A stretch of 64,000 bases of DNA from an uncultured Desulfobacter sp. GTDB taxonomy: Bacteria > Desulfobacterota > Desulfobacteria > Desulfobacterales > Desulfobacteraceae. Shown here one piece after another: positions 1 to 13,027 of this stretch; the first letter of the stretch is position 1, and every line of letters begins with the position of its first letter. A model generated the notes under the pieces. That model had not been told where the DNA came from. It was given only the letters and a program-made list of their open reading frames with translations, and searched no databases. The stretch is taken from contig OY762069.1 in assembly GCA_963665095.1 (NCBI GenBank), forward strand, positions 3,904,001 through 3,968,000, given 5' to 3'. A program made the translations under genes and the position numbers.

Positions 1-887
1 CGTTTTCTTGATAATCTGGGCCGAAATGTATACCCTAGAAAATCAAACTTCATAACAGGATAATCTCCTTTTCGATCTTCATCCTTGCAATAAACTATTT
101 TTGTCTTTTCAGGGTGCAGCTCCAACCCACATTCACCAAACCTTAACTCCAAGTCAGCTTTCAACTGTTTGGCTAATGGTTCAGTTCTGCAGTGGCAAAC
201 AGCATCATCGGCATATCGCTCAAAAGGCACATACGAATAGTTTCGCTGCATCCAATGATCGAAAACATAATGCAAAAATAAATTTGCCAGCAAGGGACTA
301 ACCACTCCTCCTTGCGGAGTTCCTTTTTGCGGATAAACAAGTGATCCGTCCGGCATTGCGATTGGGGCCTTTAGCCACCGTTCAACATACAAAAGTACCC
401 AGCGACAATCTGTGTGTTTTACTACAGCTCTCATCAAAAGTTCATGACTGATATTGTCAAAAAATCCTTTGACATCAAGATCCAACACCCAGTCATACCG
501 CCAGCATCTTTTGCGTGCTTCCCCCACGGCATCCAGGGCTGACTTGTTTGGCCGATAACCATACGAGTCCGGATGAAAATGATGCTCTAATAACGGTTCG
601 AGATACTGTTTTACAACCATCTGGGCGACACGATCTCCCACAGTTGGAATACCAAGGGGCCTCATTCGGCCATCCCCTTTTGGTATCTCTATACGCGCTA
701 CCGGAGGAGGGAAATAACTGCCGGAAGACATCCGGTTCCATATTTTGAAAAGGTTATTGGTAATATCCTTTTCAAAATCAACTATGGACTGATTATCTAT
801 TCCAGCCCCACCACGGTTTGCTTTCACGCATTTGTATGCTTCCCAAACTTGACGCTTTGAGATAATAAACGACTTTACTTTTTTCAA
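1..887 (-). CDS. ltrA: Group II intron reverse transcriptase/maturase, class D (RmInt1-like); runs off the window start
   Basis: TTG start at 887 after GGGAAGGA; translates MKKVKSFIISKRQVWEAYKCVKANRGGAGID...RPLGIPTVGDR...LDVKGFFD...GTPQGGVVSPLLANLFLH...FERYADD; no stop seen before base 1. Confidence 0.92.
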   Translation of the reverse strand, partial: MKKVKSFIISKRQVWEAYKCVKANRGGAGIDNQSIVDFEKDITNNLFKIWNRMSSGSYFPPPVARIEIPKGDGRMRPLGIPTVGDRVAQMVVKQYLEPLLEHHFHPDSYGYRPNKSALDAVGEARKRCWRYDWVLDLDVKGFFDNISHELLMRAVVKHTDCRWVLLYVERWLKAPIAMPDGSLVYPQKGTPQGGVVSPLLANLFLHYVFDHWMQRNYSYVPFERYADDAVCHCRTEPLAKQLKADLELRFGECGLELHPEKTKIVYCKDEDRKGDYPVMKFDFLGYTFRPRLSRK

Positions 888-1113
888 CAGAATCCTTCCC
901 TATACGGGTTGTTCTTATGTTAAAAGTTGAACGACGCAACCCCTTCGCTCCAGTCCCATTGCAGCACCTTCTTCACTACTACGAGTTGCTCCGCCCCTGT
1001 GCTCCGCTTCGGTACTCTGATCCTTGTGGTGCTTCCACTTGGATTTCTCCCTTAGCATCGGAACGACAGGTTCCCATGTTCCATAAGAAAGCCTAAGATA
1101 TGTTCATGCCGCC
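1..1113 (-). mobile_element. Class D group II intron copy 1, 5' part of domain I deleted, fused to DV of IIC intron A
   Basis: RT ORF plus upstream ribozyme-like sequence (minus strand GGCGGCATGA...GGAACATGGGAACC); bases 1-470 are near-identical to 11252-11721; ends abruptly at gccgcc/acccggcatacgg. Confidence 0.8.
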
Positions 1114-1777
1114 ACCCGGCATACGGATCTCGTACCAAGGCGGTTCGGCTGGTATGAATAAAATCAGTTGTAGGTTATCCCACCGATTTTATCGGGTTTT
1201 GGGCAAAGTCTTGCTATGGAAATTTCGGCCACTGCCGCATTATTCCCATAAAATCCTTCTACTTACTCACCACAACCATTTACCCAAGCCATTCGGCCCG
1301 GGTACCGTTCAGGCCTTCATCGGGGTGAGGCCTCCGGGTGTACTTCTCCCATGCCAGAGAGGCCCAGCTCGTTTTTTCCGACTACTATGCCCTCTGCTGA
1401 CTTCTCCCATGCGGTCAGGACCAGTTACCCGGCCCTCAGACAATCCGGCACATGGGAGATCTCCCGGGGTAAACACGTGTCTTTCAGTACCTGAATGCCG
1501 GATTTACGGACATACCCTGTAATGGATAGAGGACTTCACCTTGTTGTGCAGGCTCGTCCCGGTATGTGCGTCTTATATCCGATTTCTGTACGTCATCCCG
1601 TACCTTCGTGGTACCTTGCCTCAGCAAGGCGGCTTCCTCCCGAAGCACCGTCACCGGTACCCCGTTGCACTACCACTACACCCTTCGCCTCCATCCGGCT
1701 GGGTCTAAGACTTGCCAAACGCATTGAAATCGTTTACGTTTGACTCACTTTTAAGAACACGTGCCGTGCCCGGCACA
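1112..1777 (-). mobile_element. ORF-less group IIC(-attC) intron, copy A (DVI not seen in window; first G displaced to 2486)
   Basis: Minus strand begins TGTGCCGGGCACGG; has DV GAACCGCCTTGGTACGAGATCCGTATGCCGGGTGG; colinear with copy B; no RT ORF. Confidence 0.85.
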
Positions 1778-2485
1778 ATAGGGATAGGACTCCCCATTAC
1801 TGAGGAGCCCTCCCACACCACCCGGCGTACGGATCTCGTACCAAGGCGGTTCGGCTGGTATGAATAGAATCGGTTGTAGGTTATCCCACCGATTTTATCG
1901 GGCTTTGGGCAAAGTCATGCTATGGAAATTTCGACCACTGCCGCATTATTTCCATAAAATCCTTCTACTTACTCACCACAACCATTTACCCAAGCCATTC
2001 GGCCCGGGTACCGTTCAGGCCTTCATCGGGGTGAGGCCTCCGGGTGTACTTCTCCCATGACAGGGAGGCCCGGCTCGTTTCCTTCCGACTACTATGCCCT
2101 CTGCTGACTTCTCCCATGCGGTCAGGACCGGTTACCCGGCCCTCAGCCAATCCGGCACATGGGAGATCTCCCGGGGTAAACACATGTCTTTCGGTACGTG
2201 AATGCCGGGTTTACGGACATACCCTGTAATGGATAGAGGACTTTGCCTTGTGTGGCAGGCTCGTCCCGGTATGCGCGCCTTATACCCGATTCCTGTACGT
2301 CATCCCGTACCTTCGTGGTGCCTTGCCTCAGCAAAGCGGCTTCCTCCCGAAGCACCGTCACCGGTACCCCGTTGCACTACCACTACACCCTTCGCCTCCA
2401 TCCGGCTGGGTCTAAGACTTGCCAAATGTATTGGAATTCTATACATTTGACTCACTCTTAAGAACATGTGCCGTGCCCGGCACAC
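1778..2485 (-). mobile_element. ORF-less group IIC intron, copy B, complete (708 nt)
   Basis: 5' GTGTGCCGGGCACGG at 2485; DV GAACCGCC...CGTACGCCGGGTGGTG; DVI ends CCTATCCCTAT at 1778; DIV short and non-coding. Confidence 0.9.
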
Positions 2486-2486
2486 C

Positions 2487-2612
2487 ACCAAACGCTGGAG
2501 CGGGACCGGGCTTACTGCGTGGATTTTTGAAAGTTTGTGGTTCAAGAAAATGTAAACTTTTATCTGAGGATACGGCTTCAAAACGCCCGGCCCCTCAGCT
2601 TCCCCGTTATAA
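2487..2612 (+). other. attC site 1 (R'' interrupted by the IIC introns)
   Basis: AC-caaac-GCTGGAG (L'') ... CCCGGCCC-CTCAGC (L')-ttcccc-GTTATAA (R', 2606-2612); same architecture as attC2. Confidence 0.8.
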
Positions 2613-2630
2613 ATTTGAAGGACAAACGAA

Positions 2631-3362
2631 TTGCATCAAGATAATAAAATTGCATTGCTGATTGATTGTGACAATGTTAGTCACAAATCTATTGAAGGTG
2701 TTATCGATGAACTTTCCAAGTATGGGAAAGTCAATATAAGGCATGCCTATGGAAATTGGAAAAACGATAGTATGAAAGGTTGGGAAGAGAAGTTGCACCC
2801 ACATGCCATCAAACCAATTCAGCAATTTGCATATACTAAGGGTAAAAATGCAACTGATGCTGCTATGATAATTGATGCAATGGATATTTTATATACTCAA
2901 AACCTTGATGCTTTTGCATTAATGACGAGTGATAGCGATTTTACACCGCTGGTTATGCGCATTTTATCTAATGGCATTACAGTTTATGGTTTTGGAGAGA
3001 AAAAAACTCCACAGCCTTTCGTCAAAGCCTGTTCTCAATTTATATACACAGAAAATTTAGAGCAAATAGAAGGGGAAGATGAAAAGCCTGATAATAATGT
3101 AAATGCAAAAAAGACAAGGAACGAACTGAGACAAGATGCAGCATTGGTAAAATTATTAAGAACAGCTGTAGAGCATTTTGCAGATGAGAGTGGATGGTCT
3201 CATTTAGGTCTTGTTGGGCAATATATTAGCAACAAAACCTCATTTTCACCCGTAAATTACGGGTATAAAAAATTAGGCGACTTAATAAGAGTTAGTGATC
3301 TTTTTCATATAGAAATGAGAGATGACAACTCTACTATGTACATAAAAGATATAAGAAAATAA
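2631..3362 (+). CDS. NYN (LabA/DUF88 PIN-like) domain protein with C-terminal OST-HTH/LOTUS domain; gene cassette
   Basis: IALLIDCDN, GKNATD, SDSDFTPL motifs; C-terminal GW..L..VG...F.P.NYGYKKL.DLI; AT-rich; bounded by GTTATAA and TTATAAC. Confidence 0.9.
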   Translation: MHQDNKIALLIDCDNVSHKSIEGVIDELSKYGKVNIRHAYGNWKNDSMKGWEEKLHPHAIKPIQQFAYTKGKNATDAAMIIDAMDILYTQNLDAFALMTSDSDFTPLVMRILSNGITVYGFGEKKTPQPFVKACSQFIYTENLEQIEGEDEKPDNNVNAKKTRNELRQDAALVKLLRTAVEHFADESGWSHLGLVGQYISNKTSFSPVNYGYKKLGDLIRVSDLFHIEMRDDNSTMYIKDIRK

Positions 3363-3364
3363 TT

Positions 3365-3493
3365 TTATAACAAAGCCGCTGAACCCGACCGGGCAACCTG
3401 CGCGGCGTTTTGAGGCTGCCTGGTTAATGAAATTTTAAACTTTTACCGGAGCTATTGTGGTTTAAACGCCCGGCCGGTTAGCTCCCCGTTATG
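3365..3493 (+). other. attC site 2
   Basis: R'' TTATAAC 3365-3371 (exact complement of the cassette-start GTTATAA), L'' GCTGAAC, arms CCGACCGGG/CCCGGCCGG, L' GTTAGC, R' GTTATG 3488-3493. Confidence 0.9.
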
Positions 3494-4197
3494 GTGCGAC
3501 ACGAGGTCGCATTATTGGCTGTTTGGCGGACCAGTCGGTCCTGACCAAACCCGGCTCCTGCCGGTACCCTAGGTGGCATGCGGTTACCGGTGCATCCGGC
3601 AACGGTGTGAAGCCCAACCGACAAAGTACCGAATTCCGCAGCTGCGGAAGGGGTGGAAGCCGTGAGGCGGATACCCTCCTGGAAGCCTCAATCCGGGTAA
3701 GGGCAAGGGTTTGGATGATATGGTCAAATTAATTGAATGTTCCGTAAGTACCGTCAGGGAGAGCAAGCTAAAAAGGCTGGTAAGCTTGGACCAAAAGGTG
3801 AGCGGTCAGGTTGCAGGTTTCCTAACTGCCTGCACGGAGATGTTGTGCCGCCGGTGCTTAAGGGCAGACCTAAGTCATCCATAAATTGGCAATAATGCGG
3901 AACGTGGAAACCCCGTATCTTCGCCGGGAGTATTCGGCAGGTGAAACTGTAAGGCACACTGATGGAGGTGCGGGCGTAAGATGCAGGAAAAAGCGAATGC
4001 CGTCTTGTAATGAGATGGATACGGATTGAGGCGTATATCCCCAACATTACCCGGCCCGAAAGGGAGCTGACGTCCGGCGGGTGTGACTACAGACACACCC
4101 GGGCAGGTATTTCGTAAGCGTTTAAAGGACCCCATCTACAACTCATTAAAATGACATGAGAAGATGAGCCAACTTTTAATTAACGGAGGCCCATCAT

Positions 4198-4530
4198 ATG
4201 TCAGAAACAGAGAACAAAAACCAAAAGCTAATCCAGTTCTGGAAATACCATATTAAACAATGGTCTGAATCGAGTATGTCCCAAAATGCATACTGCAGGC
4301 AAAATGATTTAAGACCCAATCAATTTACATACTGGAAAATGAAATTCAAAAGCCAGGCACTTGCCCCAGAATTCGTTCAGGTCCCTTCAACGCAGATCAG
4401 CCAGGCACTAAGTCTTTCTGAACAAAAAGGCTTAACGTTGAATACAGATAACGGATTTCAGATCGAAATACCGGATGGCTTTTCCCAAACAACCCTGGCC
4501 CAGGTGCTTCAAGTATTGAGGCGGTGCTGA
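4198..4530 (+). CDS. tnpA: IS66 accessory protein TnpA
   Basis: W..HI.QW..S.MSQ.AYCR...L....F.YW pattern; first ORF of the IS66. Confidence 0.85.
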   Translation: MSETENKNQKLIQFWKYHIKQWSESSMSQNAYCRQNDLRPNQFTYWKMKFKSQALAPEFVQVPSTQISQALSLSEQKGLTLNTDNGFQIEIPDGFSQTTLAQVLQVLRRC

Positions 4531-4883
4531 TGTTTTCTCCCACCCAGAATTTAAAAATTCATATCGCACTTGGAAACACTGATATGCGCAAGTCCATTGA
4601 TGGGCTATCCATACTTGTGAGCGAAAAGTTAAATTTGGATCCATTTTCAGGACACATGTTTGTATTCTGTAATCGGAAACGGAATATATTGAAAATCCTG
4701 TATTGGGATCGCAATGGATTCTGTCTTTGGCATAAGCGCTTGGAAAGGGATTATTTTCAATGGCCCAAGTCAAAAGAGGAAATTTTGACCATCGGAGCAA
4801 AAGAGCTTTCCTGGCTGATGGACGGACTTTCTATTCGTCAGGAAAAAGCACATAAATCATTAAAATATTCGGCTGTTTTTTGA
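4524..4883 (+). CDS. tnpB: IS66 accessory protein TnpB
   Basis: TDMRKSIDGL, FVFCNRKR..LKILYWD.NGF.LW.KRLE motifs. Confidence 0.95.
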   Translation: MLMFSPTQNLKIHIALGNTDMRKSIDGLSILVSEKLNLDPFSGHMFVFCNRKRNILKILYWDRNGFCLWHKRLERDYFQWPKSKEEILTIGAKELSWLMDGLSIRQEKAHKSLKYSAVF

Positions 4884-4928
4884 TCATAAAAACTGGTGAA
4901 AACCGCGTGGTTATGGTATATACAACGC

Positions 4929-6521
4929 ATGAATAAAGAGGCTTTTGCAGACATAAATGACGTTGAGAAATTAAAAGAAATGATGGCTTGTTTTGTCAAT
5001 GATTTTTCAGATAGAGAGCACAATTATAAAGCCGAAATCAAAATTCTCAACGAACAGATTAAAAGCCTTCGGGACCAGCTTTTTGGTAAAAAGACAGAAA
5101 AAATCCATAAGAATGACGGTCAACTATCCCTTTTTGATACTTTTGAGCCGGATACGCCCATATTGGACGAACCCGAAGAAATCAGCGTGCCTGCCCATAA
5201 TCGAAAGAAGCCAGGGCGTAGACCTTTGCCTGAAAACCTTCCACGGGTTGAAGTGATCCACGATCTGACCGAGGAAGAAAAAATATGTGCCTGTGGCTGC
5301 ATGAAATCCCGTTGCGGCAAAGAAGAATCTGAACAGCTTGAAATTATTCCGGCACAAGTGAGAGTAATCAGAAACATTCGTTATAAATACGCTTGCAAAA
5401 ACTGCGAAGGTGTTGACGATGATGGGCCAACAGTGTCCATTGCCAGAATGCCGGAACAAATGATCCCCAAGAGCATCGCAACCCCAGGGCTTTTGGCCCA
5501 TATCCTGACAGCCAAATTTGCAGATGCTTTACCCTTCTACCGGCAGGAAAAACAGTTTAACCGAATTGGAGTAGACATCCACAGGTCCAATATGTGCAAT
5601 TGGGCTATGAAAGTGGCCCAGGCCTGTGAGATCCTGCTGGAATATATGAAGGATGAAATCCTTAAAGGCCCAGTGATAAATATTGACGAAACAACAGTCC
5701 AGGTTCTCAAAGAACCGAAACGGTCAAAATGCTATATGTGGGTGTTCAAAGGAGGGACACCGGATAATCCCATTATTCTGTTCCAGTATCACCCAACTCG
5801 ATCCGGGGATGTTGCCCGGAATTTTTTGAACGGTTATCAAGGTGTTGTTCAGACGGATGGCTATGCTGGCTATGACTTTCTTGATCATATTGTGGAAATC
5901 ATTCATGTTGCGTGCTGGGCACACGCACGTCGAAAGTTCATGGCTGTGGTCAAAGCTGCCGGAAATAAAACTGGCAACCCAACGGGAACCGCCGGCAAAG
6001 CCCTGAAGTACATCAGCAAATTATACAAAATAGAAAGAGAGGCCAAAGAACTTGGTTTGTCTGCTGATGGACTTTACTGGAAAAGGCAGGAGCTATCCTT
6101 GCCTATCCTTGATGAATTTAAAAAATGGTTGGATGCTCAAGTTGAAAAGGTACCGCCCAAAAGTCTTCTTGGTAAAGCCATTAACTACACCCTTAATCAA
6201 TGGCATAGATTGGTTCTGTATACGGCAAGTGGTCTGGTAATGCCGGATAATAATGTAGTCGAAAATGCCATAAGACCCTTTGTGGTGGGCAGAAAAAATT
6301 GGTTGTTTTCATGTACACCTGCGGGCGCCGATGCCAGTGCCTGCATTTACAGCCTGATCGAAACAGCCAAGGCCAATGGGCTTGAACCTTACTGGTACCT
6401 CAAATTTCTCTTTGAAAATTTACCGGAAGCCATGACGGAAGATGAATTTAAAGCCTTGATGCCACAAAACGTGGATAAACATTTGCTGGAATCCAACTAT
6501 ACAACACCCCGTCAGGCTTAA
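4929..6521 (+). CDS. tnpC: IS66 DDE transposase TnpC (alternative start 4896)
   Basis: LPFYRQ, IDET, QTDGYAGY, CWAHARRKF, DNNVVENAIRP..VGRKNWLF, SLIETAKANG. Confidence 0.97.
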   Translation: MNKEAFADINDVEKLKEMMACFVNDFSDREHNYKAEIKILNEQIKSLRDQLFGKKTEKIHKNDGQLSLFDTFEPDTPILDEPEEISVPAHNRKKPGRRPLPENLPRVEVIHDLTEEEKICACGCMKSRCGKEESEQLEIIPAQVRVIRNIRYKYACKNCEGVDDDGPTVSIARMPEQMIPKSIATPGLLAHILTAKFADALPFYRQEKQFNRIGVDIHRSNMCNWAMKVAQACEILLEYMKDEILKGPVINIDETTVQVLKEPKRSKCYMWVFKGGTPDNPIILFQYHPTRSGDVARNFLNGYQGVVQTDGYAGYDFLDHIVEIIHVACWAHARRKFMAVVKAAGNKTGNPTGTAGKALKYISKLYKIEREAKELGLSADGLYWKRQELSLPILDEFKKWLDAQVEKVPPKSLLGKAINYTLNQWHRLVLYTASGLVMPDNNVVENAIRPFVVGRKNWLFSCTPAGADASACIYSLIETAKANGLEPYWYLKFLFENLPEAMTEDEFKALMPQNVDKHLLESNYTTPRQA

Positions 6522-6781
6522 AAAGGTGCGGTTGATACACCGCTTACGGTATTTCTTTGCAAGAGAGTCTGGAGAATCTTTGAGGATGGTGTAGATTCCC
6601 GAAATAACCTGAACAAAAACCCGCCAAATTTTTCATATTAAATTGACAAAGTTCCATTTTTCTCAAATTATCCTGTACAGGTTCTGATCAAAGCATTCTG
6701 ACAAAAATGAAAAGGGCGAAAAGCTTTGCAGAGCCTCGCCCTTAAGACCGGGATTTATAAAATCCCAAAACAACCATAAAA

Positions 6782-7228
6782 ATGATAATAAAGGTCAAAG
6801 CTGATATCAAGCAAATTTTCAAGCAGGGCAAAAATTTTACATGGCCAAAACCGTCACGATGTCCACATTGCAACGACTCCAGGCTGTGGGGACACGGCTT
6901 TGTACTCTCCTTTTTTGATGGATTTGATCAAGGGGTGTATTTGAAGCGATATCGCTGCCCCTATTGCAAAACCGTATTCAAATTGAAGCCATATGGTTTT
7001 TTCAAGAGGTTCCAGGCCAGTATCTGGCAAATCCTTACCAGCATTATGAGTCGTCTATACACTGACCGGTATCTGCCGGAACTCTCCTGGAACCGACAGC
7101 ATTTTTGGTTTACTGCATTGAAACGAAATATAGCGGCCTACCTGTCCAACAGTTGGGACAAAGGTGTGGTTGCTGGTTTTATCAAGCTAATCGGTATGGG
7201 TAAAATCCCGGTTACCAGTTCAATTTAA
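6782..7228 (+). CDS. Transposon-associated Zn-ribbon protein (DUF6431-like)
   Basis: CPHC...LWGHG...RYRCPYC motifs; first ORF in the element. Confidence 0.75.
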   Translation: MIIKVKADIKQIFKQGKNFTWPKPSRCPHCNDSRLWGHGFVLSFFDGFDQGVYLKRYRCPYCKTVFKLKPYGFFKRFQASIWQILTSIMSRLYTDRYLPELSWNRQHFWFTALKRNIAAYLSNSWDKGVVAGFIKLIGMGKIPVTSSI

Positions 7229-7331
7229 CCATGGGGCTGGATCAGGTTTAAACCACCCTACCGAAGGCTGTGATTTACCGAAGGATCATACTGTCATACA
7301 AGCCCTTAGAACCAAATTTTAAGGAGGAAGT

Positions 7332-8588
7332 ATGACAGAAAATCAGAAAAATGAGGTTGCCGTGTTCAGGTTTGGGGTCATTTGTGAATTTGTGACCGGA
7401 ACAAATTTTGATTACGGTGAAAAAGAACGAATTTTACAGCAGAAGTGCGCCCGCAAATGGTCCATCCCGTATTCTGGAAGGACCAGGCTTTCCAGAAGTA
7501 CGATTCTGGGATGGGTCCGGCAGTATAACGGTCGAATAGAGTCTCTTTACCCCAAAGACCGTTCAGACCAGGGAAAATCAAGGGTATTCGATGACGAGAC
7601 TGCATCTCAACTAATCAAACTCCGGTTAGACCAGCCTGATGCGACAGTCGATACATTGATCTGTTCACTTCAAAAAACTACATGCCAGACATACAGTCCA
7701 TCCAGTGTATACCGTTTTTTACGCGGCCGGGGGCTAATGAACACGGCCCGGCCAGAGGATAGAAGAAAGTTTGAAGCCCCGCACCCCAATGATATGTGGC
7801 AAAGCGACGTCATGCACGGCCCTACAGTCCTGGTTCAGGATAAGCAAAGAAAAACGTACCTGATTGCCATTATGGACGATCATTCCAGGCTGGTTACGGC
7901 TGCAGGTTTTTATTTATCTGAGAATCTGAAGACCTATCTTATGGTGCTGGAGCAGGCTTTTTTGAGCCGTGGGCTTCCCCGCAAGCTGTATGTAGATAAC
8001 GGTCCTGCGTTCAGATCCCATCATTTAAAATATGTAGCAGCGTCTCTGTCCATCGCTTTAATCCATGCAAGGCCATATAAGCCCCAGGGGAAAGGTAAAA
8101 TCGAGCGCTGGTTCAGAACGGTTCGGCTTCAGTTTCTGCAAAGATTTACAGGTAAGACCCTGGATGATCTGAATGGGGCATTTGAGAAGTGGCTTCATAA
8201 TGAGTACCATCAGCGTAAACACAGCTCCACAGGCGAATCACCGTTTAAAAGATTTACCTCGGCCATGGAGTGCATCCGTACCGCCCCACCGGATCTGAAA
8301 GACCACTTCCGCAAAACCGCCCGGCGCAAGGTGGCAAAGGACCGAACCATAACCCTTGACGGCAACATGTTTGAGGCCCCGGTTGCGCTGATCGGCAGAC
8401 ATGTGGATGTAAAGTACCATGAGGACACCCCTTTGCAGGCTGAAGTTATCTATAAAGCAAAGTCTTATGGCTTGTTAACCCCGGTGGACCTTGCTGTGAA
8501 CTGCCGGGTCAAGCGGCACCGCTGGAACGAAAATGATATCCGGATTATGCCTGAACCCTCAAATTACAAGGGAGGGCAACTGTTATGA
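7332..8588 (+). CDS. DDE integrase/transposase (rve core plus Mu-transposase C-terminal domain)
   Basis: WQSD, DDHSR, LYVDNG, GKGKIERWFRT, Y..R.HSST. Confidence 0.93.
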   Translation: MTENQKNEVAVFRFGVICEFVTGTNFDYGEKERILQQKCARKWSIPYSGRTRLSRSTILGWVRQYNGRIESLYPKDRSDQGKSRVFDDETASQLIKLRLDQPDATVDTLICSLQKTTCQTYSPSSVYRFLRGRGLMNTARPEDRRKFEAPHPNDMWQSDVMHGPTVLVQDKQRKTYLIAIMDDHSRLVTAAGFYLSENLKTYLMVLEQAFLSRGLPRKLYVDNGPAFRSHHLKYVAASLSIALIHARPYKPQGKGKIERWFRTVRLQFLQRFTGKTLDDLNGAFEKWLHNEYHQRKHSSTGESPFKRFTSAMECIRTAPPDLKDHFRKTARRKVAKDRTITLDGNMFEAPVALIGRHVDVKYHEDTPLQAEVIYKAKSYGLLTPVDLAVNCRVKRHRWNENDIRIMPEPSNYKGGQLL

Positions 8589-9394
8589 GTGAAATGTATC
8601 GCACCTTTTTTGGCTTATCCAGGGAGGCCTTCCCGGCGCAGATAGAAATTAATGATATCCTGGTTACCCCGGAGGTCTCGGGCGTTAAAAATCGGATTGA
8701 TTATTCCTTAAGACTTGGCTGCAGTGCGGTTATCACAGGGGATGTGGGCAGCGGAAAGTCCACCGCCTTAAGGTATGCCGCCTCATCCCTACACCCTTCG
8801 GAATACAAAGTCTTTTATGTTACGGCCTCAAGCGGTTCCATCATGGAACTTTACCGGCAGATTGTTGAAGAACTGGGCATAGAGCGGACATCGACGTCCC
8901 GCGCTGTTATGATCTCCATTATTAAAAATGAAATACGTGAATTCGTCCTGGGAAAAAAGATCAAAACCGTTTTGATTATAGATGAGGCATCTCTGCTTCG
9001 CATGGAAGTCTTTGCCGAACTTCACACCCTGGTTCAATTTGAAAAAGACGCCATGCCCTGGCTGCCTGTGATCCTTGCAGGTCAGCCGACATTGATAGAT
9101 AAGCTTCAGTACCGGACGTCAATCCCGTTTGCATCCAGGATTGTGGCTAAAAGCCATCTGGATGGTCTGGATGTGGCTGGAATGAAAACTTACCTGATCC
9201 ATCATTTAAAACTATGCGGTGTTGACACCAACTTTTTTTCTGACCAGGCGGTGACTGCGATTCATCAAGGCTCCGGCGGCCTTTTACGAAAGGCGAATAA
9301 TCTTGCCAGAGGCTCATTGATTGCTGCTGCGGCAGAAAAATCAATGACGGTATCTGCAGAGCATGTCCGCATTGCTTCATCGGAGATTTTTTAA
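8585..9394 (+). CDS. ExeA/TnsC-like AAA+ ATPase of the transposon
   Basis: Walker A GDVGSGKST, Walker B LIIDEA, ILAGQP; ATGA overlap with the transposase. Confidence 0.9.
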   Translation: MSEMYRTFFGLSREAFPAQIEINDILVTPEVSGVKNRIDYSLRLGCSAVITGDVGSGKSTALRYAASSLHPSEYKVFYVTASSGSIMELYRQIVEELGIERTSTSRAVMISIIKNEIREFVLGKKIKTVLIIDEASLLRMEVFAELHTLVQFEKDAMPWLPVILAGQPTLIDKLQYRTSIPFASRIVAKSHLDGLDVAGMKTYLIHHLKLCGVDTNFFSDQAVTAIHQGSGGLLRKANNLARGSLIAAAAEKSMTVSAEHVRIASSEIF

Positions 9395-10043
9395 GAAAAA
9401 ACAGCCATAGAGCAGAATATTACGATTTCGGTGAAACGGAGCCGGGCTCTGCTGAGGAGCAACCTGGTAAGGGATAGCCGGAAGCAGGCAGCATTGAATA
9501 ATGCGCCAGGGGAAGTGGGGATTACCTGCTTCCCCTTTCTGCTTTATTCAAGCTGTTCTGCCTATGCCTTAAAAACCTACTGAGAAGGAGCGCAGCGACT
9601 TCTGTAGCTGTCTTAAATAATATGGAAAAGATTTAATCTGTTCAAAATAATTAGAAAATTTAAGTCAGGATAAAATGCGACTCAACAATGGGAAAGCAAA
9701 TGACGGCAATAGCTGGTGCGCCATCAGCAGCTTTACGCTGTTAAAAGACTGTAGATGCGTATCGCAAAGGTTGTTAAAGTAGCACACGGCATATGCGCCA
9801 GAGGTTCTTTCAAAAGGATGCATTTTCTTTTGACTCGGAAAAAGAACAGTGCTTTCCGAGAGAATGCTCAAGGACATATGCTATGAAATAACTGTAAATT
9901 TCATTATTGCTAAAACAACCGGGCGGCCCGCAAGGCTTAGTCTTAGAAATGCTTGAGCCGTATGATGGGAAACTGTCACGTACGGTTCTGAGGGGGCCTG
10001 GGGTAGATAACTACCCCAGGCTACCCGATTTTCAAAAAAATCG

Positions 10044-10080
10044 TTGCACGGATCCAAAAGTAATACTACAATGGTATTAC
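10044..10080 (+). promoter_or_regulatory. Sigma70 promoter and palindromic operator of the AbrB/VapC cassette
   Basis: TTGCAC(10044)-17 nt-TACAAT(10067); inverted repeat GTAATAC-N7-GTATTAC straddles the -10 box. Confidence 0.75.
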
Positions 10081-10100
10081 ATTATCAAAGGAGATTTATT

Positions 10101-10325
10101 ATGCGTGTAACCACAAAAGGCCAAGTCACTATCCCCAAGAATGTAAGGGAAATATTAGGTATTGCTCCAGAGACAGACGTTGATTTTCAAGAAGATAACG
10201 GAAGATTTTATCTGGTCAAAGTATCAAAAAACAAACCGACCTCTAAATTTTCGAAGTTAAGGGGGATTGCTACAGCTAAAATGTCTACAGACGAAATCAT
10301 GAATATGACAAGAAAAATAAAATGA
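10101..10325 (+). CDS. AbrB/MazE/SpoVT-family antitoxin
   Basis: MRVTTKGQVTIPK.VRE.LGI; AAGGAG RBS; overlaps the PIN toxin. Confidence 0.92.
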   Translation: MRVTTKGQVTIPKNVREILGIAPETDVDFQEDNGRFYLVKVSKNKPTSKFSKLRGIATAKMSTDEIMNMTRKIK

Positions 10326-10726
10326 ACGGAATTTTCATTGATTCGTGTGTGTTGCTTGATCTGTTTACGAATGATTCTAAATGGGGAAACTGGTCTGAAG
10401 ACGTATTAAGTCAGTGTAGCCAGACGAATACATTATTCATTAATTCAATTGTGTATACCGAAATATCAATTGGTTTCAACCGTATTGAAGAAGTCGAGGA
10501 AGCTGTTGAACAAGTGGGTGTAAAAGTCCTGGAAATTCCACGCGAAGCTTTGTTTTTGGCTGGAAAGACATTCCTTGAGTATCGAAGAAATAAGGGCACT
10601 AAAAGTTCAACCCTTCCGGATTTCTTCATTGGTGCTCACGCTACAGTATCTTCATTTGACTTAGTCACAAGGGACATTGCAAAATATAGAACGTATTTCC
10701 CAAACATAAAACTTATTTGCCCATGA
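10322..10726 (+). CDS. vapC: PIN-domain toxin VapC
   Basis: IFIDSCVLLD, VYTE, LPDFFIGAHA, LVTRD. Confidence 0.92.
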   Translation: MNGIFIDSCVLLDLFTNDSKWGNWSEDVLSQCSQTNTLFINSIVYTEISIGFNRIEEVEEAVEQVGVKVLEIPREALFLAGKTFLEYRRNKGTKSSTLPDFFIGAHATVSSFDLVTRDIAKYRTYFPNIKLICP

Positions 10727-10814
10727 TTTGCTTCAAGACGTGGTCGCAAACAAATTTTGAACTTTATACCAAGCGAATAGGGATAGGACTCCCCATCACT
10801 GAGGAGCCCTCCCA

Positions 10815-11733
10815 GGTGAGTAGCCCAAAGGAACTTCCCCTTCAGGCTCTCTCAGAACCGGTCGTGAATCTCTCGACTCATCCGGCTCCTATCGTTCAGC
10901 CGTTTTTTTTTCAGGACACGCCAATGTACAAAAAGGTTCGGCTGTCGTTCAGCAATCTGTGTCAACCATCTTGTGGCCTTTTGTTGACGTCCCCTGAGTT
11001 TCTTATATTTACAGGTTGCCCAACGTACTAACCGCCAATTTATATGATGGAGAATCCCAGACATCTCAGAAGGATTGTACCGCCCGTAATAATTAATCCA
11101 GCCTTGAATTATTGGATTACATTCTATAGCCAGATCCTCAAGCGTGTCCCCTGGCCGTAATTGCCAGTTCCAACTGCGTACTTTCTGTCTGATTGCCTTT
11201 GCAGCCTTGTTGCTTATCGCTGGTGTGAAGTTTTCAAAAAATTTTCCTCTGCGATTTCTTGATAATCTGGGCCGAAATGTATACCCTAGAAAATCAAACT
11301 TCATAACAGGATAATCTCCTTTTCGATCTTCATCCTTGCAATAAACTATTTTTGTCTTTTCAGGGTGCAGCTCCAACCCACATTCACCAAACCTTAACTC
11401 CAAGTCAGCTTTCAACTGTTTGGCTAATGGTTCAGTTCTGCAGTGGCAAACAGCATCATCGGCATATCGCTCAAAAGGCACATACGAATAGTTTCGCTGC
11501 ATCCAATGATCGAAAACATAATGCAAAAATAAATTTGCCAGCAAGGGACTAACCACTCCTCCTTGCGGAGTTCCTTTTTGCGGATAAACAAGTGATCCGT
11601 CCGGCATTGCGATTGGGGCCTTTAGCCACCGTTCAACATACAAAAGTACCCAGCGACAATCTGTGTGTTTTACTACAGCTCTCATCAAAAGTTCATGATT
11701 GATATTGTCAAAAAATCCTTTCTCATGGCACAC
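10815..11733 (-). mobile_element. Class D group II intron copy 2, both termini present, large internal deletion
   Basis: 5' GTGTGCCATGAGA joined directly to RT KGFFDN codons; DV GAGCCGGATGAGTCGAGAGATTCACGACCGGTTC; 3' end CTACTCACC; removal restores GGGTGGTG/TGGGAGGG exactly as in copy B. Confidence 0.9.
10852..11720 (-). pseudogene. ltrA: N-terminally truncated class D intron RT/maturase
   Basis: Begins at KGFFDN; retains PQGG, YADD and maturase NPIIQGWINYY; lacks RT0-2. Confidence 0.9.
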
Positions 11734-11786
11734 CACCACCCGGCATACGGATCACGTACCAAGGCGGTTCGGCTGATTTCGAAAAA

Positions 11787-12858
11787 TCAGTTCCCGGGCA
11801 GATACAATCCTTTCTTAACAAAATACATTTCAGGCATGGCAATGGCCACCCACTTGATTTTGCTCATGTGCCAATACTTTTTGCGTGCGTTGCCGCACAG
11901 CATGGCGTCCTGATGAGAAATACCAAGTTTTTCCAGGTTACGGACCCTGGTCCCAGGGTTTTTCCATTGTTTCCAAACAAGACTTCTCAGCCGTCGCAGT
12001 ATCCAGACCTTGAGTTCTTTCAGAAAATAGCGGGTTTCCGTGAGCCGGAAATATCCCCACCACCCTCGGAAATACTGGTTCAAGTCCTGAATCACTTGCC
12101 ACAGACTTTTACCCCGTTTACGGCAGGTTAATTCCCGGACCTTATCCTTGAACCGTTTCATACTCTTGGCATGAATCCGGATCTTGGACTGCCCACACAT
12201 TTGGAAATATGTGAATCCTAAGAATTTACCTATCCACGGTCTGCTTACAGCACTCTTATCCTGGTTTACCTTGAGCTTGAGTTTCACAGTCAGAAACCGG
12301 GTGATACTCTGCATAACCCGCTGGGCTGCTCTCAGGTATGGCCTTCAACCATATACCCCTTCCCCTGTATCACTGCATCGTGTGCGGATCTGCCGGGCCT
12401 GAATCCATAACTGAATTCAGAAAAAGAGGGGTCCCAGACCTGTTCAAGGACCTGGCTCAATTTATCATGACCATCGACACCTGGGATATGGCCTGCTGGA
12501 TAAACCGGTCCAGCACTGTTGGGATTCCAAGTAAACGGACACCGCCATCCGGTTTAGGGATTTCCTTCCTTTTAACCGGCAGCGGTTTGTACCTGCATTC
12601 CAGCAGGTCTTGTTTGATTTCAGGCCAGTGCTTTGCAAGGTAGCTGCCAAGCTGGCTGGTTTTCATGCCATCCACTCCTGGGGCACCCTTGTTTGCACAG
12701 ACATGCTTCCATGCCAGGATAATGTTGTTACGTTCAAGAATCATCTCCATTAAACGGGCATTGTTTCCCAGACGTTCGGCAATCTGTGACGCTGGAAACA
12801 GTTCCAACTGCTGTGGCGATCTGTTCACAAGTACACATCTCCTATTTGTCGTTATCAT
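11787..12858 (-). pseudogene. ltrA: Class C intron RT/maturase pseudogene
   Basis: N-term NKGAPGVDG, R.LGIPTVLDR; then FSEFSYGFRPGRSAHDA; the PQG/YADD region is absent; C-term FLGFT, LNQYFRGWWGYF. Confidence 0.9.
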
Positions 12859-13027
12859 TTACCCGGACCATTCGGCCCGGGCACCGTTCAGGCCTTCACC
12901 GGGGTGAGTCCTCCCTGGTTTGCAGGGCTCGTTTCCTCCGACTACTATGCCCTCTGCTGACTTCTCCCATGCGGCCAGGACCAGTTACCCGGCCCTCAGC
13001 TCCCCATTCGATTTTAAAAACAACCAT

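Follow-up and report, generated by a model that had tools for sequence, protein, structure and literature searches.

The window analysed here is a stretch of 64,000 nt from the forward strand of contig OY762069.1 (positions 3,904,001-3,968,000; assembly GCA_963665095.1), belonging to an uncultured Desulfobacter sp. whose genome we label G000. Read along the minus strand, the bottom strand of an integron attC site (2612-2487; R' TTATAAC at 2612-2606, an L-box hairpin and a GTTTG spacer) ends in TTTGGT (2492-2487, preceded by ...CAGCG), the last two letters of which (2488-2487) are the GT of its R'' box. There follow a lone G (2486), a complete ORF-less group IIC intron of 708 nt, ‘B’ (2485-1778), and then a sibling, ‘A’, which starts at 1777 without its own first nucleotide. 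The attC is the 5' exon of A, the resident intron, and we read the lone G as G1 of A, stranded 5' of B, where it doubles as the last base of B's IBS1 (GGTG). Intron A, also ORF-less and of class IIC, runs from its nt 2 to nt 667 (1777-1112), through domain V (DV), and is interrupted at the DV/DVI junction by a 5'-truncated, RT-encoding group II intron of non-IIC type (1111-1, minus strand), whose ORF starts at 887, spans 428 aa and runs past the window edge. The DVI of A and its 3' exon TGGCC lie beyond the window (G000:3903563-3903521), with TGGCC, the remainder of R'', adjoining the 3' end of A at G000:3903525; joined to the 5' exon it gives an R'' of GTTGGCC, which follows the point where the cassette gene upstream ends in its stop codon.

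Both A and B are antisense to the integron cassettes. The next cassette gene (2631-3362, plus strand) encodes 243 aa with a weak NYN-domain match, below the curated cut-off, and the neighbouring attC (3494-3364, minus strand), 0.9 kb from the tandem, is an empty, canonical TTGT|T site (3370|3369). A top-strand group II intron (3495-10029, plus strand) begins directly after the R' of this next attC, and is itself interrupted by transposase-like ORFs (4198-6521 and 6782-9394). Further along, 10044-10726 and 10777-12999 hold a small cassette, toxin-antitoxin-like, which lies behind a further IIC copy in a decayed state. In G002 and G022 the same 3' exon, TCGCTTGG, is attached to attC sites that differ, both G-preceded, as would be consistent with intron-mediated reshuffling of cassettes. 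A full-length integron integrase is encoded at G000:910169, about 3 Mb from the locus. Within domain I (DI) of B, TTGCCA-17-TACATT (2419-2447, plus strand) faces the next cassette, in the manner of the Pout elements tabulated in PMC3001079; a promoter scan gave 5 matches against 3.4 +/- 1.9 expected, which is not above chance.

Over 667 nt the identity between the two introns is 94.3%, and both match the Rfam group II DI models. The termini and domains expected of a group IIC intron are present in B, with a GUGYG 5' end and an AY 3' end (GTGTGCC...CCCTAT), a recognisable DI, and an intact DV (about 1850-1817) and DVI (about 1814-1781, with the bulged A at 1785; together 1850-1781, minus strand); the CGC in DV we take to be the triad of IIC introns. 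Its longest stop-free stretch is just 77 aa. G000 does encode two intact ORF-bearing siblings (446 aa, with a YADD RT), whose best PDB match is the GsI-IIC RT (E 3e-143, as against about 1e-41 for Ll.LtrB and other non-IIC maturases). Lying in the attC bottom strand, at R'' and against the direction of the cassettes, B is placed as a group IIC-attC intron should be, but the TTGT/T consensus of such introns is found neither at B (GGTG/T) nor at A (TGGT/T); other copies in G000 that share the ACAA loop of A (see below) have TTGT in 8/8 cases. As the consensus describes a majority, its absence marks a variant. The DNA hairpin expected upstream of IBS1 is present, the L-box stem being recovered both in folds and by complementarity of its arms, although folding of the site as a whole is not significant (z -0.47).

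The original prediction described this order of exon, G, B and A, and held that removing B would restore TGGT/GTGTGCC exactly; both points hold at the level of the sequence, and cutting out B regenerates the outer junction as nesting in a twintron demands. It also held that the result was a precisely removable twintron, and here just the inner half stands. A twintron further calls for an outer intron able to splice, and A, judged by its sequence, is a dead outer intron, since the 5'-truncated third intron splits its DV from its DVI; the twintron therefore cannot fully resolve, and B alone would be precisely removable. The non-IIC intron responsible homes into these IIC introns where DV meets DVI (GGTGGTG|TGGGAG), being found at 4/9 DV motifs in G000, with further copies in other genomes of the genus (sites at window 1-1111 and 10815-11732, at G000:647002 and 3902025, and in L006, L025 and L028); its RT presumably resembles class D. 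In the IIC copies L129 (in G022) and L005 (in G020), another group II intron, carried on the opposite strand, has entered DV or the boundary between DV and DVI.

Before any biological meaning is attached to the tandem, it has to be asked whether two separate loci might have been joined in assembly via the repeat. Contigs from two read sets of different studies (X1 and X2, either of which may be the source sample of the assembly) match the window over 2459-3493 with 0 differences and cross the junction between exon, G and B, albeit with 27 letters on the B side, which falls under our 31-letter rule. Among the matches listed for read contigs, none bridges the B|A junction (1778/1777), and even the best-matching read sets depart from the window at several places in A, both of which an artefact would accommodate; that X1 has no read depth over 2205-2378 carries no weight. 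Against this, the genome is a single contig, A and B are distinct haplotypes, and the G absent from A is exactly the extra G found 708 nt upstream; moreover, a second, near-identical copy of B (99.85%) is also preceded by a G, and the covariation of targeting letters in other genomes, described below, predicts this very junction. On this indirect evidence we regard the junction as genuine and a misassembly as highly improbable. The second copy of B (L001:9700-12694; G000:3902693) occupies a perfect TGTG site and is interrupted like A, the sequence 3' of it having been lost because an IS-associated deletion cut it off. In a further run, X7, contig depth is high on B-type sequence including the extra G (window 2205-2488), as might be expected of an organism in which several copies are G-preceded.

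A and B differ in the loop that should select their targets. The loop of A reads ACAA on the minus strand (1547-1544; TTGT on the plus strand) and that of B reads CACA (2254-2251; TGTG on the plus strand), each preceded by a C, at 2255 in B, which is the predicted delta nucleotide in the geometry described for another IIC intron (PMC10190682). Both loops occupy the same DI hairpin, in the RF02001 alignment as well as in local folds (z -2.7 and -3.3), and each pairing with the exon carries a single mismatch, at the same base (G2489), just as was first proposed. Relatives were gathered within the genus and the order, as well as from two collections, giving 70 distinct copies with a readable start and loop; copies lacking either were dropped, including A itself and the degraded L051 and L133. 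The loop and the 5' exon change together in this set: ACAA copies (n=50) follow TTGT (40), TGGT (7), ATGT (1) or TGTG (2); ACCA copies (n=4) follow TGGT (2), GGGT (1) or TTGT (1); AACA/AACT copies (n=8) all follow exons ending in GTT, which corresponds to +1 on an empty attC; and CACA copies (n=8) follow TGTG (5), GGTG (2) or TTGT (1). Across the 70 copies, the mean number of Watson-Crick pairs between loop and exon is 3.64 of 4, compared with 2.86 after shuffling, and none of 10,000 shuffles scored as high, a test that overstates the signal since kin are not independent. The four-way covariation (ACAA/TTGT, ACCA/TGGT, AACA/TGTT, CACA/TGTG) identifies the loop as EBS1, as the original prediction had supposed.

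A second position behaves likewise. About 40 nt 3' of the loop, the 5 readable AACA/AACT rows all have T (CGTATA) and the 59 readable others all have A; the base after the intron is A in 6/7 AACA/AACT copies with a visible 3' end and nearly always T in the rest. This position, at 2211 in B (the A of CGTAAA, which pairs with the T at +1) and 1504 in A (also an A), is thus identified as EBS3 from its covariation with the first base of the 3' exon. CGTAAA is present in 7/7 readable CACA rows and is shared with the ACAA and ACCA types. With CACA as EBS1 and A as EBS3, B should read TGTG|T. The AACA/AACT variant, with U as EBS3, enters empty attC sites at a point one base further on (GTT|A), and does so in several families of the order (L018, L148, L151, L157, L158, L161, L164, L153 and L168-L179); CACA is one substitution away from AACA, yet is combined with the ACAA-type EBS3.

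What, then, does this code fit? At a canonical empty attC, CACA makes 1/4 pairs in the usual position and 3/4 at +1, with a purine as the base that follows; at a canonical occupied attC it makes 4/4 pairs with a T next, at both +1 and +3. At the window site itself, +3 would pair 4/4 and +1 pairs 3/4, but the insertion is at +1, as it is in all G-preceded relatives, from which we infer that the distance from the hairpin sets the register of insertion. It might be argued that the hairpin does almost everything, with about 1 nt of slack and a minor role for EBS1, so that B came to lie at +1 by tolerance; a CACA copy at an ordinary TTGT|T site (L027) and the tolerated mismatch at 2489 would suit such a scheme. 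The tight covariation of EBS1 and of EBS3 with the exons is not what slack would produce, however, and 0/50 ACAA copies lie inside the 5' end of a sibling (junction searches of genus and order), such that we give this explanation hardly any credence.

We favour nested retrohoming of B into an attC already occupied by A, to which we assign a probability of roughly three in four. On this model, B is an ORF-less IIC-attC intron that would depend for both splicing and mobility on its ORF-bearing siblings, whose intact RT/maturase would act in trans. The RNP would dock on the bottom-strand attC hairpin, which survives a first insertion, and B would then reverse-splice one base beyond the normal position, between G1 and U2 of the resident (the junction that is observed), with exon TGT and the resident G1 together forming TGTG and U2 supplying the T. 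Given its EBS1 and EBS3, B fits an occupied attC at +1 and fits an ordinary empty attC poorly. The product would be a direct repeat of about 670 nt, about 94% identical, which we suggest usually collapses by homologous recombination; in the window the tandem persists, with a dead outer intron. That such a collapse leaves one mosaic intron behind an extra G, carrying CACA or ACAA depending on the crossover point, we hold to have somewhat better than an even chance of being correct.

The distribution of the extra G among relatives bears on this directly. It precedes 7/8 CACA copies and 2/50 ACAA copies of the 70-copy set, a result that supports the interpretation first offered. Fourteen G-preceded copies are known in all (7 CACA; 3 ACAA, namely L078, L088 and L133; and 4 with unknown loop), and the added base is G in 14/14, never A or C. 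The 3' end is visible in 6 of these: one is the window twintron, and five are single introns followed by plain attC exon (TCGC in two, then TGGG, TAGA and TATG), which are probably collapsed twintrons. Leaving B aside, G-preceded copies divide 6 CACA to 3 ACAA, which comes close to how the homology is apportioned 3' and 5' of the loop, though the numbers are small. One copy, L052, is plainly mosaic, matching L027 over nt 1-250 (246/250) and a copy of another lineage, L098, over nt 331-708 (354/375).

The same data can be read in another way, whereby the extra G came from an imprecise 5' junction or duplication of G1, CACA being a compensatory change that restored splicing, and the twintron a rare by-product. 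In its favour, there are the three G-preceded ACAA copies, CACA copies do not form one clade (4 changes, AU p 0.001; 37 rows, loop removed), and singles outnumber twintrons by 5 to 1. Against it, the added base is always G, never A or C, while CACA with an EBS3 of A, once present, would still need TGTG|T to move, and scatter of CACA over the tree is equally expected from recombination after nesting; we judge this account distinctly unlikely.

Nested retrohoming at this locus does not make a rule, and it is as a rule that the original prediction went too far. It expected CACA copies always to sit at +1 of another intron, and this is so for just 1/4 attC-type CACA copies that are undegraded and show their 3' end. 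It named CACA copies at TTGT|T among the findings that would refute it, and there is one, L027; this copy is 698/706 identical to an ACAA copy (L009), with a G-preceded ACAA copy 2.2 kb away. Exchange through recombination is thereby suggested though not proved, and L027 is probably a recombinant. The claim that B is suited to occupied attC sites is borne out by the fit of EBS1 and EBS3 at +1, but TGTG|T is not exclusive to such sites, since an intron-free attC with a G scar, L196, reads TTGT-G-TGTGCC. Taken together, the earlier interpretation is partly supported, being largely right for this locus and too strong in its generality.

L196 also opens a different route to the tandem. Its cassette occurs with an intron at G000:953239 (154/160), and its sequence is exactly what would be left by intron loss between TGTGCC repeats, or by precise loss of a CACA intron; a scarred empty attC is therefore a possible second target, at which the G would again trace to a former resident. 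If B had homed into an attC scarred by such an earlier loss, a later TGTGCC-mediated deletion could have fused B's 3' exon to a downstream A, making the tandem a deletion product with no nested insertion at all. Suitable microhomology does occur, with 3/35 other distinct 3' exons starting TGTGC and 1 of them TGTGCC, but the exons of the five G-preceded singles lack it, and three events are needed where nesting needs one; we consider this course of events unlikely. Two intron-free attC sites have a damaged R'' (L196:1772-1790, GT-G-TGTGCC; L001:6190-6200, GTGCAAA) that resembles the scars of intron loss at TGTG(CC) microhomologies. Besides L196, a census found 9 intron-free attC sites (7 GTT, 1 GTG-C and 1 GTA). 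In G000, 3 of the 8 sites found are empty and canonical, so that saturation of attC sites is not an obvious driver of nesting. A search for an empty allele of the window site, with the upstream PIN-like cassette, gave a single match (L189), which has no attC.

Intact nests are rare. The attC-type twintron occurs in 1/25 genomes of the genus and 1/401 of the order, in both cases G000. The junction pattern matches 7/401 genomes of the same phylum, with introns in G000 and G524 only; 0/401 genomes of another phylum have a general IIC-in-IIC junction, viral contigs gave 1 junction match that is not an intron and 0 CACA loops, and a plasmid search returned short distant matches only. In G524, an ORF-bearing IIC intron (predicted EBS1 CCAU, from an alignment made by eye) follows a terminator and TTTTG-G, and is itself followed at +1 by TGCGCCC, the start of a resident without G1 (TGCGCCCGGCATG). 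At L064, an ORF-less CACA intron, whose 5' junction is off the contig, is followed at +3 by TGCCCGG, the start of an RT-bearing sibling without its GTG (TGCCCGGCATG). These two unrelated IIC-in-IIC insertions at terminator-type sites suggest recurrence; CACA is a common EBS1 among terminator-type IIC introns, and no intron follows 13/14 distinct copies whose 3' exon can be seen.

We also speculate, with slightly more doubt than confidence, that hairpin-guided IIC introns run a recurrent cycle of site takeover, at attC sites and terminators alike, in which EBS1 and EBS3 changes would shift the register, the variant would read the exon together with the 5' GUG that is conserved in whatever IIC intron is resident, and nesting would lead to mosaic replacement. 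An occupied homing site is ordinarily regarded as spent; were such a cycle to operate, occupied sites would be permanent targets, ribozyme halves would be shuffled between lineages, and the leftover G would spoil the GTT core of the attC even after intron loss. The altered targeting letters suggest how such elements can re-use, and probably take over, occupied sites, and in this way introns might contend for sites, swap domains with one another and lock integron cassettes in place. In practical terms, the two-part code of EBS1 and EBS3 gives three specificities on one attC hairpin (normal, +1 empty and +1 occupied). How far hairpin distance and base-pairing each contribute to IIC target choice is still poorly defined, and these natural variants are ready constructs for separating the two. 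The reach of the finding is modest: one intact example, in non-coding antisense DNA, and one bacterial order for the attC case.

Known IIC-attC introns occupy R'' on the bottom strand of attC and run against the cassettes, with a TTGT/T consensus (PMC3001079 and PMC7923331). Like S.ma.I2 and Ge.s.I1, the introns described here have this placement and a short EBS1-IBS1 plus EBS3-IBS3 pairing, and the TTGT/T consensus is what most siblings, and A through its EBS1, read; unlike them, B reads TGTG/T one base on, in a site made of exon plus resident G1. The available parts of these two papers describe neither nested IIC-attC introns nor EBS variants. A further likeness is to the E.r. IIC intron that targets terminators through a DNA stem, a short spacer, a 4-nt IBS1 and a 1-nt IBS3 (PMC10190682); in its complex a delta C directly precedes EBS1, and EBS3 is an A about 40-44 nt downstream; A and B share this geometry of a delta C, four EBS1 bases and, at the same distance, the A of EBS3. 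That an occupied hairpin can serve again is not described in the part of that paper available. Neither an insertion behind the first nucleotide of a sibling nor the AACA variant with its shifted site is described in the literature searched, which left several primary IIC papers outside its coverage.

In Methanosarcina acetivorans, group II introns have homed repeatedly into one another and copies have been lost by homologous recombination (reviewed in PMC4424553); our locus would share both features, the loss being conjectural here, but as far as those nests are reviewed there, B differs in being guided by a hairpin to nt 1 of its sibling, and in an integron context. In the TeI3/TeI4 twintrons of Thermosynechococcus elongatus, which are of class IIB, the inner intron sits between the first and second ATGs of the DIV ORF (PMC2882425). 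As there, we see an ORF-less family with a changed EBS and a fixed site in a related intron, with the RT for B presumably supplied in trans by a sibling; the site of B, by contrast, straddles the exon/intron boundary and depends on the attC hairpin of its host, and the two introns therefore compete for one and the same site.
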